Below are positions 24,001 through 27,000 of a stretch of DNA of 64,000 nucleotides, piece after piece (positions within the stretch are counted from its first letter, which is position 1; each line of letters opens with the position of its first letter). The position numbers are program-made. Source of the DNA: Pseudomonadota bacterium (GTDB lineage Bacteria; Bdellovibrionota; Bdellovibrionia; Bdellovibrionales; Bdellovibrionaceae); the NCBI GenBank assembly GCA_041178425.1, contig JBEGVH010000040.1, forward strand, positions 32,001 to 96,000. The letters run 5' to 3'.

Positions 24001-27000
24001 TGTAACTTGTTTTTTGGATGGTTTTCATGGGGACACCTCCGCGACGATTATGGTTGGGAACGTGTCTGAAAAGGCTCGCGACATCACGACTGTTGCCTAC
24101 GAGTGTATGATGAAGGGAATTGAAGCTATTACTCCCATGGGAACTACGGGGGACATCGGTTTTTCCATTGATAAATACGCTTCTCGAAAAGGCTATACCA
24201 CCGTTAAAGAAATTGGTGGCCACGGAATAGGGAGAACGTTTCATGATGAGCCCTTTGTTCCAAGTTTTGGTAAAAAAGGGAAGGGATCAAAGTTGATTCC
24301 ATGGCGCTGCTTTACTGTAGAGCCGATGATTAATGAAACAACGGCTCCGTTGAAAGAGCATGACATTCCTAATTCGGCCATCAAATGGTACACGACGGGG
24401 GATAACACTCTCTCAGCTCAATTTGAACACACGATTTTAGTAACAGACACCGGGTACGATATTTTGACGGTACCCTAAAAGGAAAGGTTTAAGAAATGGC
24501 AACAATGACGGTTATTCAATCTACCAAGGGAGTCAAAACAATGAAGAACAGCAAAAAGACTGTTTCTAAAGCGTTAGCGATGCAGCCTGATTACAAAGTC
24601 TGTAAAGAAGCCATGGAGAATCCAAAGGTTTTTGCAGAATTGGCGCGTTGGGGACGTGAAGAAATTCGCATTGCCGAATCTGAAATGCCAGGCCTTATGG
24701 CACTTCGTAAAGAGTACGGAAAGTCTCAGCCACTCAAAGGGGCTCGTATCGCTGGTTGTTTGCACATGACCATTCAAACGGCGGTTCTTATCGAAACGCT
24801 GGTTCATTTAGGGGCAAAAATTCGTTGGTCTTCTTGCAATATTTTTTCAACTCAAGATCACGCAGCGGTTGCCATGGCAGCGGCGGGCATTCCTGTTTTC
24901 GCCTGGAAAGGTGAAACAGAAGAAGAATTCAACTGGTGTATTGAACAAACAATTACTGGTTGGGGTAAAGACGGTTATAATTTGATTCTCGATGATGGTG
25001 GCGATTTGACAAATATGATGCACGAAAAGCGTTTTGCTCATATTCTCAAAGGAATCATTGGTCTCAGTGAAGAAACAACGACAGGCGTTCATAATCTTGA
25101 AAAACTCCATAAAAAAGGTCTTCTGAAAGTTCCTGCAATCAATGTGAATGATTCTGTGACTAAGTCAAAATTTGATAACCTTTATGGTTGCCGTGAGTCT
25201 TTAGCGGATGGCATCAAGCGTGCCACAGACACTATGGTGGCCGGTAAAGTGGTGGTGGTTGCTGGATATGGTGATGTGGGTAAGGGTTGTGCGTTCAGCA
25301 TGCGTTCCTATGGTGCGCGAGTGCTTGTAACGGAAATCGATCCTATCTGTGCTCTGCAAGCGGCAATGGAAGGCTTCGAAGTAACGACGATGGAAGAGGC
25401 CGCACCTGAGGCCGACATTTTTGTAACAGCAACTGGATGCCTTGATATCATCACTGATAAGCATTTTAGCAAAATGAAAAACAACGCTATTGTTTGCAAT
25501 ATCGGTCACTTTGATATCGAAATTGACATGGCTTGGTTGAATAAGAACAGCAAAGTTCGTGAAATTAAAGCGCAGGTTGATCTTCATACTTTGAAAAATG
25601 GCCGTAGCGTTATTATTTTGGCTAAAGGTCGTTTAGTGAATCTTGGTTGTGCAACAGGGCACCCGAGCTTTGTTATGAGTAACTCATTCACTAATCAGGT
25701 TTTGGCGCAAATCGAGCTTTACCTCAATCGCGACAAGTACTCTGAAATTGGCGTTTACCGCTTACCAAAGCATCTTGATGAAAAAGTTGCAGCTCTTCAT
25801 CTCGATAAACTTGGGGTTAAATTAACAAAATTAAGCGATAAACAATCGAAGTACCTTGGTCTTTCTCAGCAAGGTCCATTCAAGCCAGAGCATTACCGTT
25901 ATTAGTTTTTTCCCTAGCTTGAGCTAAGAATACAAAAAAGCCGATCTCGTTGAGGTCGGCTTTTTTATTTTTAAGTTCAATTGTAAGTTTGGGTCAGCGG
26001 CCCAAGTTTTTTTCAGAATTACCCCTTTGTTTGAATTTTAATGTGTTGCTCAATTTGTTGAATAGCCTTATTTGGAATATGAGCGAACTCAATAGAAAAA
26101 CCGGATTTATCGTCAAGTATATGTCTAACCACTCCGGTGGCCGCGAAAGGTTCAACGGTAGACTCTTCTTCGGGGTGAATCTCAATTTGTGCAATAGCAG
26201 CGTCTCTGGGGGGCAAGTGTTGAGAAATGATCATCATTCCACCGGTGCTTAAATCTCTGCAAATACCAATGTGGTTTGTCTGTGGTGGATCTTCTTTAAA
26301 ATGAAATCGCACCACGGCAATAAGTTCTGCTCTCTGGCCCTTGCGTTTGTCGCTCAGTTGGGTTTTTTCTATTCCTCTCATGAGGTTTAAAATATCTTCT
26401 AGCTCTGGTACACTTTCAATTTCAGTCCATTGTTCGAGGCCTGGCCCGATGGCAAAGAGGGGGCCTTGCATTTTTCCGCTCTTAATGACCATTCGAATCT
26501 CGGACAAACTTAATGGGCCAAAGCCACTGCCTCTGTACTGTAAATACCAAGTTGTTAACGACATAGTATTAACCCTCAAGAAATCACATTCCTAACCCTG
26601 ATGATCTCATTAGACCAAAAAGCTGTAAATTTTTTTTAATGCACCAAATTGAGAGGCGTCTCGATGGGGGACGGAGCCTTGGCGTGAAGAACTGAGGGCT
26701 CCGGCGAACGTGATGTGTTGGCCGGGCCCCAGCGGGGCCGGCCACGCCGGCGAGGCCATGGAATGGCCGCCCCGAAGTATTCACGCCAAGGCTCCGTCCC
26801 CCTTTGAGACGCCGTTCTTTGAGTGGAGACCGGTGGGGATTTTTATAAATTTTCACTTGAAAACGGGAGGGTTAAACCGAATAATAGGGGCGAGTTGAAT
26901 AGGGGACGTAGGGTCTTCTTTTGGCTCAAACACATTAACGTTTTTTAGTGTCTTAAAGGTGTCGTCGGCAAGTTGCAGAGCTTAGGTCGGCATTGGCGCC

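Follow-up and report, generated by a model that had tools for sequence, protein, structure and literature searches.

The window, the whole stretch of 64,000 nt that was analysed, carries between two divergent genes a palindromic element of about 160 bp, in which two inverted arms enclose a conserved core of three hairpins. Elements with this core are referred to as type 1, and an element with a different core, type 2, was found elsewhere in the window. The features are as follows.

26655..26813, + strand: complete type-1 element; inverted-repeat pair of arms around the three-hairpin core
26655..26688, + strand: left (5') arm; perfect stretch 26666-26688, two mismatches in the outer stretch
26689..26779, + strand: conserved core, 91 nt; closing helix 26696-26699/26769-26772, helix 26701-26706/26745-26750
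26707..26719, + strand: small hairpin P3a; AAGCGTGAYGCGTT in most of the wider family, a variant of it in the window copy
26719..26744, + strand: GC-rich hairpin P3b; variable in length and sequence, compensatory changes among the copies of the source genome
26754..26768, + strand: hairpin P4, GGCCAT-GGA-ATGGCC; 15 positions invariant in seven of the eight copies of the source genome
26780..26813, + strand: right (3') arm; perfect stretch 26780-26802
48453..48595, + strand: type-2 element, by fold and sequence; core distinct from type 1

The window copy has a folding energy of -78.3 kcal/mol as single-stranded DNA, whereas 200 shuffles give -36.4 +/- 3.2 kcal/mol (z = -13), and it is scored at 126.8 bits by covariance model R1 (G000:C40:58680-58788, G000 being the source genome). 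The only ORFs overlapping it have 62 and 90 codons and conservation between copies ends at the core, which denotes a non-coding element. The P4 stem of the copy on contig C39 carries a compensated pair change, and matches to the P4 pattern are confined to genus g1 (4 of 182 genomes). P3b is the site where relatives possess long extra hairpins (G001, G002) or a nested copy (L099). Contigs from runs X2 and X3 hold the window copy with identical arms and end inside the core, and no contig of runs X6 and X8 spans the site.

No Rfam family reaches its gathering threshold on the window copy at E<=1, in agreement with the survey's finding. The only matches, two plant microRNA-precursor models at 35 bits (gathering threshold 79) and 30 bits (gathering threshold 137), arise because the copy is a long hairpin. 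A terminator consensus scan of window positions 26300-27100 gave no terminator-like site, and a phage search with one arm, the 35-nt left arm of the window copy, gave no match in 50,697 records at E<=1. A hammerhead or any other ribozyme, a Y RNA and a retron RNA were rejected for want of Rfam support and on comparison with their known motifs. An inverton was rejected on the variation of the arms among copies and the lack of a nearby recombinase. Integron attC sites are conserved at their ends and not at the centre, which would set them apart from the element.

A total of eight full type-1 copies were recovered from the source genome (3.06 Mb, 43 contigs) by blastn with window positions 26640-26829, at 87-97% identity to the window copy, together with two fragments (C20:65251-65295 and C40:161923-161954). 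This is the same set that the survey had listed, and every full core is indeed capped by perfect arms of 17-36 bp (C40 23, C29 36, C21 28, C30a 17, C30b 18, C6a 22, C6b 17 and C39 34 bp); several of them lengthen to about 27-37 bp when mismatches are allowed. Across the eight copies the core has a mean column identity of 85%, and 18 of its 41 predicted pairs show compensatory changes. The type-2 core is likewise real, being present inside copy-specific arms at all seven listed loci. The two types had been said to account for 12 of the 16 long perfect inverted repeats of the genome, and our count comes close to this. We found 28 perfect inverted repeats with arms of at least 17 bp and spacers of up to 400 nt; eight are type 1 and four type 2, and these make up 12 of the 15 with spacers of at least 40 nt. 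The 13 with spacers below 40 nt have arms of 21 bp at the longest. No direct repeat abuts the arms in the eight copies as these are delimited here, their ends being set by the arms themselves. Empty sites for these copies were not found in genus relatives, where the coding flanks alone match (72-83%), the intergenic DNA is unalignable and synteny is broken; L023 gave no match.

The arms had been described as unique to each copy. They are mostly copy-specific, but the C40 and C29 arms align at 61-66%, and at 10 of the 12 substituted positions both copies keep a Watson-Crick pair. Once the common inner GTGAA is left out, an alignment this good arises in 77 of 5000 shuffles. When the arms of all eight copies were compared with the inner 7 nt trimmed, the observed score was reached by 9 of 300 shuffles, or by 29 of 300 without the C40/C29 pair, and the arm score shows no correlation with the identity of the cores (Spearman 0.17, p = 0.39). 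Beyond that pair the similarity is weak, and we therefore infer common arm descent for most of the source-genome copies from other genomes.

A search of the family with R1 detected the element in 17 of 151 genomes and 9 of 41 genera, with one to eight R1 matches per genome and about 14 pattern matches in G002. The P3a hairpin was the basis of a motif scan across 185,579 species genomes. It gave 54 loci, 45 from Bdellovibrio-like records and nine from other phyla, and R1 confirmed 43 of the 45 and none of the nine. A metagenome scan for the core motif of the source-genome type gave no locus in a collection from which close records may have been held back. Of all cells in the 74 R1 matches (70 distinct sequences), 95.7% pair; the figure falls to 60.6% on shuffling and to 40-45% when the partners are slid. 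Of the 41 core pairs, 38 vary on both sides. Arms of at least 15 bp are present in 39 of 44 public copies (median 27 bp), with 27 mismatches per 1155 positions. Genus relatives share a short outer motif, about CTTCTCGAAAG, which is degenerate in the source genome.

Copies of the element tend to stand just behind genes. A stop codon of an ORF of at least 100 codons lies within 60 nt of the arm end in 23 of the 35 copies with long flanks, and the element is oriented either way relative to the adjoining gene. No arm in the 35 copies holds several codons of a credible gene; the overlaps comprise 2 and 4 nt and one spurious-looking ORF. At 28 loci the flanking ORFs, 55 in all, comprise diverse housekeeping genes. 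None of them is a Y1 transposase, one is an unrelated DDE transposase, and no mobilising protein or parent insertion sequence was found among them.

The comparison of orthologous copies reveals how the arms change in place. Between the complete Bdellovibrio-genus genomes G074 and G086, the 3-kb flanks are about 90-92% identical (third-codon identity 0.69-0.86) and the cores 88% identical, whereas the arms are only 57% identical, with 8 of 8 substitutions paired in both. The arms of G055 and G050 are 76% identical and 4 of 4 substitutions are paired. In eight related pairs the arms differ by 45 substitutions, 38 of which leave the position paired in both copies, and the arms are less alike than the cores every time. 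Orthologous pairs have the same outer arm boundaries, and the adjoining flanks are conserved. Comparison of L084 with L100 shows one copy whose outer 17 nt are perfect and adjoin a 4-nt patch that has not been converted, and in one G001 copy the core is flipped relative to its outer flanks. G-U pairs make up only about 2.8% of cells in the R1 matches. We take the patch, the flipped core and the few G-U pairs as signs of patch-wise copying from arm to arm.

Such paired change could also be kept by selection on a structured RNA with a function of its own, be it the product of a small RNA gene or an element at transcript ends. The strong covariation, the core kept at orthologous loci and the position of copies at gene ends would all suit it, and arm mismatches on the core's strand are more often G.T (34) than A.C (14, a few of these being indexing artefacts). 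However, a pairing kept at the RNA level is hard to reconcile with the scarcity of G-U pairs, with one-sided changes that are very rare beside two-sided ones, with the orientation going both ways, or with the flipped core, and no Rfam family matches. Selected compensatory pairs are expected to change more slowly than the neutral rate, whereas arm change here is near-neutral. We regard a functional RNA as very unlikely.

The arms also travel with the copies. G001 possesses three copies with identical 38-bp arms in different flanks, G002 has at least nine copies with related arms, and in G133 and two public MAGs paralogous copies have arms in common; the sharing between loci spans 27-38 bp. At L099 a nested copy with arms of 57-80 bp splits another core, oriented the opposite way, into the halves that flank it, and the arms of the nested copy are unrelated to that host core. 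Three tiers of palindrome, more than 100 nt per side, were found at L091.

The survey had read the element as a mobile one whose core is inserted by a RAYT-type Y1 transposase, the insertion duplicating the target in inverted form. The mobile part of this stands: the repeat is undescribed, non-coding and multi-copy, and arms common to different loci and nesting denote that it was moved or copied. The proposed mechanism is not supported, and the loci compared contradict it. Similar cores (87-97% identical to the window copy) within mostly unalignable arms could be expected from it, and the G060/G086 comparison described below could fit as well. Yet an inverted target duplication should not give arms that reappear at new loci, nested arms unrelated to the core they sit in, or orthologous loci that keep their flanks while both arms change in step. 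The putative transposases of the source genome are four weakly RAYT-like ORFs of about 250 aa, with 12.5-15.3 bits against the Pfam Y1_Tnp cut-off of 23, and PF01797 (Y1_Tnp) has no match there at E<=1e-5. The one at window positions 1461-2207 reaches 25 bits against a cut-off of 80 for the NCBIfam REP-associated tyrosine transposase (REP_Tyr_transpos). These ORFs, on C40 (33.5k), C9 and C26, do not adjoin any type-1 copy, whereas a RAYT gene typically has its REPs on either side. Across genomes, 13 of the 17 with the element have Y1_Tnp, as do 115 of all 151, or 76% in each case, and the element is present without a Y1_Tnp match in G133, G134 and G093 (the last only 54% complete). Insertion by a RAYT with inverted target duplication is accordingly an extremely improbable origin.

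The richest record comes from a locus downstream of a prpD-like gene, where synteny is retained in 44 of 44 genomes of genus g10. A long palindrome with conserved flanks was found in 25 of the 30 intergenic regions read. The 25 palindromes have 22 distinct arms with 46 mismatches in 754 paired positions, and over 38 non-independent pairs pairing holds on both sides for 173 of 219 substitutions. G083 and G070 have a plain terminator alone at this locus; elsewhere the element separates what corresponds to the left half-stem of such a terminator from its T-run. A type-1 core is present in three genomes and another core, type 3, in about 22. With filters off, R1 gives merely 15-21 bits at type-3 sites on both strands; the resemblance of type 3 to type 1 is thus limited to topology, and it was rejected as a type-1 relative. 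Because two core types occur between the same flanks, one core may have replaced another inside an older shell.

This locus bears on the possibility that the core alone moves and lands in the apex of existing hairpins, such as terminators or older shells, so that the arms are local, pre-existing DNA. The terminator frame and the two cores between the same flanks would be explained in this way, as would the many stop codons within 60 nt of arm ends, the nested copy at a hairpin tip and the long extra hairpins that relatives carry at the P3b tip. Local arms, however, would not be common to different loci over 27-38 bp; the nested copy came with its own 57-80 bp arms outside the host hairpin, and the source genome offers few landing hairpins, namely the 13 inverted repeats with short spacers. 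Movement of the core alone is in our judgement unlikely.

Another comparison concerns the building of arms. G060 holds the gene-side arm of G086 as the loop of a hairpin, without core or far arm, and mirror copying of the loop or deletion between CTCCGCT direct repeats (7 nt) explains this equally well. The former would agree with a stable core that provokes template switches on site, mirroring the neighbouring loop or flank and so extending and renewing the palindrome outward. The three tiers of L091 would be compatible with such growth, and earlier work, including PMC8794818, reports that template switching makes reverse-complement copies and expands inverted repeats. Against it, no arm in 35 copies holds several codons of a credible gene, the outer arm boundaries are equal in orthologous pairs, and deletion between the two repeats accounts for G060 equally. 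We consider on-site building decidedly unlikely.

A further reading, which we put forward tentatively and as unlikely, regards the core as an apex-seeking module that lands in hairpin loops, with template switching mirroring the adjacent loop or flank and cores perhaps swapping within a shell. Template switching around the very stable core fold would then make and renew long perfect palindromes on site. The mirroring of local DNA would be an outcome of replication and not of a transposase, which is put forward with the same reserve.

The more probable explanation is that the window copy belongs to a family of palindromic repeats with drifting, paired arms, inherited as whole hairpins. The unit inherited and copied would be the entire hairpin, arms and core together. 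In a settled copy the core would be kept, presumably being recognised by some protein or process, and the arms would drift at about the neutral rate, each change in one arm being matched in the other. Fast drift with pairing maintained would leave old copies with long, perfect and seemingly unique arms. Directly observed are the family and its covarying structure, arms that travel with copies, nesting, matched divergence of arms in place and the lack of a RAYT link. Most likely, pairing is upheld mainly by copying from arm to arm at the DNA level, probably through template switching in replication or else through hairpin-templated correction, rather than by selection for one compensatory mutation after another; selective pressure for pairing may add to this. 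Earlier studies describe processes of this kind: perfect stems can arise and be restored through template switching (PMC8794818), the correction of imperfect inverted repeats in Proteobacteria favours perfect ones (PMC5941160), and arms are homogenised and spacers inverted by template switching (PMC8604942, PMC13100816). Template switching at quasipalindromes, or homogenisation of inverted repeats, explains perfect stems, multi-base changes that seem compensatory and spacer inversion, all of which were seen here. As these sources depict it (PMC8794818, PMC5941160, PMC7202029, PMC8604942, PMC13100816), it is a mutational process and not an element family, whereas in the present case it would act on arms of 20-80 bp in a dispersed repeat, on the timescale of a whole genus.

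Several known repeats resemble the element in part, and a literature search on the topic returned nothing relevant to such palindromic repeats. REPINs and REP-BIMEs, as presented in PMC3116915 and PMC3337134, are likewise non-coding, intergenic, multi-copy palindromes with long hairpins, and REPINs can persist by vertical descent according to a preprint (bioRxiv 10.1101/2021.07.10.451892). A REPIN, however, consists of two inverted short REPs with a sequence common to the copies of a genome, whereas the element has an asymmetric three-hairpin core and differing arms. REPs usually number hundreds per genome, far above the one to eight R1 matches (about 14 pattern matches in G002) counted here. 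The element also differs from REP/REPIN-RAYT systems in that the source genome has no RAYT over the cut-off and there is no co-occurrence with Y1_Tnp.

Correia/NEMIS and ERIC are examples of bacterial MITEs. The type-1 element is small (about 160 bp), non-coding, foldable and present in eight copies, and bacterial MITEs, reviewed in PMC10969869 and PMC3184786, are small, non-coding, hairpin-forming elements dispersed between genes, sometimes nested and with decayed copies. Unlike MITEs, the copies of the source genome share just a weak outer motif and no terminal inverted repeats, and no parent insertion sequence was found among the 55 flanking ORFs; a direct target duplication is not apparent next to the arms as delimited here. 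Like intrinsic terminators, copies occur just past stop codons, and in the prpD-like case a canonical terminator has its apex replaced by the element. An intrinsic terminator, however, is a short GC-rich stem with a loop of 3-8 nt and a T-run, whereas stems here measure 17-57 bp or more around a structured centre of 90 nt, and the window copy has its 91-nt core as loop. The family is best read as undescribed, Bdellovibrionales-specific, MITE- or REPIN-like, non-coding palindromic intergenic repeats.

The family would add a lineage-specific structured palindromic repeat to a small bacterial set. For RNA discovery it is a caution that near-perfect covariation need not imply a functional RNA. It also provides an unusually clean natural record of long inverted repeats staying perfect during turnover, with 22 arms at one site in 25 genomes. 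With so many arms at a single orthologous site, the proposed role of template switching in stem pairing becomes directly testable in cultivable Bdellovibrio.

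The window covers C40:32001-96000, and its type-1 copy lies between a PilZ-domain gene and a type III glutamine synthetase gene, and consists of a GC-rich core between two paired arms.

Features in the window
26655-26813, type-1 hairpin-forming element, 159 bp
26655-26688, left arm
26689-26779, GC-rich core, 91 nt
26780-26813, right arm
26019-26579, minus strand, PilZ-domain gene, one neighbour of the element
27037-29184, type III glutamine synthetase gene, the other neighbour
1461-2207, plus strand, 248-aa ORF weakly resembling Y1/REP-associated tyrosine transposases, H-F-H motif

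As single-stranded DNA the window copy folds at -78.3 kcal/mol, compared with -36.4 +/- 3.2 in shuffles. The type-1 core is laid out as a closing helix, a helix around two hairpins (P3a and P3b) and a third hairpin (P4), and compensatory changes are already present in 18 of the 41 predicted core pairs among the eight copies of the genome under study (G000). No family matching the element was found in Rfam. A promoter-like site (TTGAAA, 17 nt, AATAAT; 10/12 matches) is located on the plus strand at 26857-26885, in the DNA separating the element from the glutamine synthetase gene.

The survey's finding of core-capped palindromes is confirmed. Whole-genome blastn recovered the same eight full type-1 copies and two fragments, and every full copy possesses perfect arms of 17-36 bp. 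A second, different core (type 2) was present at all seven loci listed for it, 48453-48595 of the window among them. The long perfect inverted repeats of G000 are indeed mostly of these two types, with 12 of 15 in our own scan (arm at least 17 bp, spacer at least 40 nt). Three further long perfect palindromes were found outside the window, at C30:236806-236929, C41:9597-9748 and C3:2711-2787, with arms of 24, 18 and 18 bp and spacers of 76, 116 and 41 nt, respectively; neither of the two core types is found at their centres, and G000 therefore has more kinds of core-capped palindrome. The decayed type-1 copies, also outside the window, are C20:65251-65295 and C40:161923-161954. One retains only the 3' half of the core, refolded within a new 13-bp palindrome, and the other the 5' third with a purine-rich left arm lacking its partner.

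Of the 151 genomes searched in the same family, 17, spread over 9 of 41 genera, matched a covariance model built from the eight G000 cores (R1), with one to eight copies each. A motif scan over 185,579 species, each represented by one genome, gave 54 loci, of which 45 come from Bdellovibrio-like records (titled Bdellovibrio, Pseudobdellovibrionaceae, Bdellovibrionales, Oligoflexia or 'Deltaproteobacteria') and nine from other phyla; R1 supported 43 of the former and none of the latter. In the alignment of 74 matches (70 distinct sequences), which was fitted to R1 and hence is biased towards the structure, standard pairs occupy 95.7% of cells, against 60.6% in shuffles and 40-45% with slid partners, and 38 of the 41 core pairs show change on both sides. 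Arms of at least 15 bp were found in 39 of 44 public copies (median 27; 27 mismatches in 1155 positions), and long arms are the rule across the type-1 family. The element is located mainly at gene ends and points either way with respect to the adjacent gene. Among the 35 long-flanked copies, 23 have an ORF of at least 100 codons whose stop codon lies within 60 nt of an arm end; about 15 of them adjoin an ORF with a Pfam match, and several of the remaining ORFs are short or spurious-looking. Arms overlap stop codons by 2-4 nt at most in the 35 copies.

The survey had further proposed that a RAYT-type Y1 transposase inserts the core and that a mirror-image duplication of the target makes the arms. 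Five results argue against arms made from the target: arms shared across loci, a nested copy, arm change at orthologous sites, the range of arms at a prpD-like locus, and the likeness between the arms of the window copy and its nearest relative. Identical 38-bp arms occur on three copies at different loci in the relative G001, at least nine copies at different loci in G002 carry related, decaying arms, and arms are also common to paralogue pairs in G133 and two public MAGs. In genus relatives a conserved outer motif ends the arms, so the variable stretch is part of the element. At locus L099 a nested copy, with arms perfect over 57 bp by scan and folding to about 80 bp, sits in P3b of another core whose two halves flank it in reverse orientation, and its arms bear no relation to the core hosting them. 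On the other side of the balance, no empty site was found for any G000 type-1 copy among genus relatives and sequencing runs.

Several loci display rearrangement. L104 (G001:C115) has the same arms and outer flanks as L078 and L095 with the core flipped relative to the flanks, and is an inversion of the centre between arms. L091 (G017:C28) is an onion-like palindrome with three pairing tiers separated by small unpaired patches, extending beyond 100 nt to either side of the core. L021 and L036 (G002:C16 and C47) have lost part of the core or have an arm joined to unrelated flank, and adjoin the 3' end of a DDE transposase-like frame (likeness by eye). Two inverted copies, L079/L024 (G002:C17, ~22372-23309), lie directly past an S-adenosylhomocysteine hydrolase gene and surround an AT-rich stretch of about 600 nt whose only ORFs, an overlapping pair of 44 and 68 codons, are unconvincing; the window copy lies about 750 nt past the orthologue of that gene, and the two may represent an old shared site. 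Contig ends of G001 and G002 often fall inside type-1 elements. A separate repeat of about 70 bp (L045 and many other sites), with at least 40 matches per genome in G001, G002 and G004 and none in G000 and G003, often adjoins type-1 elements and a conserved 'tail' of about 50 nt.

Arms also change in place. In relatives G074 and G086 the element occupies the same site; the 3-kb flanks are about 90-92% identical, and on the right no difference occurs before the arm is reached. Arm identity is 57%, with pairing kept in both at 8/8 substitutions. For the core, identity is 88% by segmentation and about 95% by eye over its inner part; the flanking genes have a third-codon identity of 0.69-0.86, and the non-coding DNA next to the element is, by eye, about 60-65% identical. 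G055 and G050 show a like pattern, with 4/4 arm substitutions and a 2-nt indel matched. In each of eight related pairs arm identity (0.35-0.90) is below core identity (0.86-0.97). Within G000, the claim that arms are unique to each copy holds for most copies but not for the window copy and the C29 copy, whose cores are 97% and arms 61-66% identical, with 10/12 arm substitutions paired in both; once the five inner bases common to both are removed, 77 of 5000 shuffles do as well. With the inner 7 nt trimmed, the observed score among G000 arms was reached by 9 of 300 shuffles, and by 29 of 300 without this pair; arm similarity does not track core identity. Outside this pair, the arms of G000 hardly exceed shuffles in similarity, which counts against reading the arms as a fast-drifting stem. 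Nevertheless, travelling arms, nesting, in-place change and the C40/C29 likeness together make the apparent uniqueness the expected look of old copies of such a stem.

The site directly past a prpD-like gene is syntenic in all 44 genomes of its genus. Among 30 intergenic regions read there, 25 contain a long palindrome whose arms measure 21-45 bp and fall into 22 distinct sequences; there are 46 mismatches in 754 paired positions, and the same short flanks surround most. Three of the 25 cores are type 1 and about 22 another three-hairpin core ('type 3'), on which R1 scores only 15-21 bits. Finding two core types within one set of flanks would allow for replacement of the core, a point against our reading. 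Comparison of 38 non-independent genome pairs showed 219 arm substitutions, 173 of them paired in both members. A canonical terminator is all that stands at the site in G083 and G070, and the palindrome flanks correspond to its left half-stem and T-run; G060 and G090 have shorter hairpins, and the scan found no long palindrome at this site in G088. The gene-side arm of G086 is present in G060 as a hairpin loop, without core or far arm, and two CTCCGCT repeats bracket exactly the part absent from G060. This, too, counts against the drifting stem: it fits mirror copying of the loop at insertion, or else deletion between the repeats. A second long palindrome in the same intergenic region of G055, G052, G079, G067 and G088 has a centre resembling the G000 type-2 core (GAGTTCCGCAGCAGC...), so type-2 relatives occur in the Bdellovibrio genus too.

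Mobilisation by RAYT transposases was not borne out. At E<=1e-5 no Y1_Tnp hit was obtained in G000, and element and Y1_Tnp do not co-vary: Y1_Tnp is found in 13 of 17 element-positive genomes against 115 of 151 overall, and three element-bearing genomes, G133, G134 and the merely 54%-complete G093, give no hit. Four RAYT-like ORFs of about 250 aa exist in G000 (one in the window, two on C9, one on C26), at about 12.5-15.4 bits against a Pfam cut-off of 23; the window ORF scores 15.4, and 25.3 against 80 for the NCBIfam REP-associated tyrosine transposase. Among 55 ORFs flanking 28 loci there is one transposase (DDE type), the rest being assorted housekeeping genes.

The unit copied and inherited is most likely the whole hairpin. 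We infer that the arms stay paired through DNA-level copying from one arm to the other, rather than through compensations selected step by step, because pairing persists while arm sequence diverges at about the neutral rate, G-U pairs are uncommon (~2.8% of cells), one-sided changes are very few, and differences come in patches, as between L084 and L100 and in the 3-mismatch patch of the C30b copy. For that patch, a related organism in sequencing run X8 has a version symmetric to G000's left arm. Replication template switching could be the process behind such copying. Published work describes it as creating and repairing perfect stems (PMC8794818) and as homogenising arms and inverting spacers (PMC8604942, PMC13100816), and imperfect repeats as preferentially corrected to perfect ones in Proteobacteria (PMC5941160). 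Arm mismatches on the core's strand (34 G.T vs 14 A.C) hint at some strand asymmetry.

REPINs/REP-BIME and bacterial MITEs are the closest known kinds, likewise small, non-coding, palindromic, dispersed and long-lived. The type-1 element nevertheless departs from both: unlike REPINs/REP-BIME it has no RAYT link and no shared REP, and unlike MITEs it has no shared terminal repeats. No target duplication was seen at the arm ends as delimited here. A narrow literature search on palindromic intergenic repeats in Bdellovibrio found nothing relevant. The type-1 family is of value mainly as a model from nature for the upkeep of long perfect palindromes.
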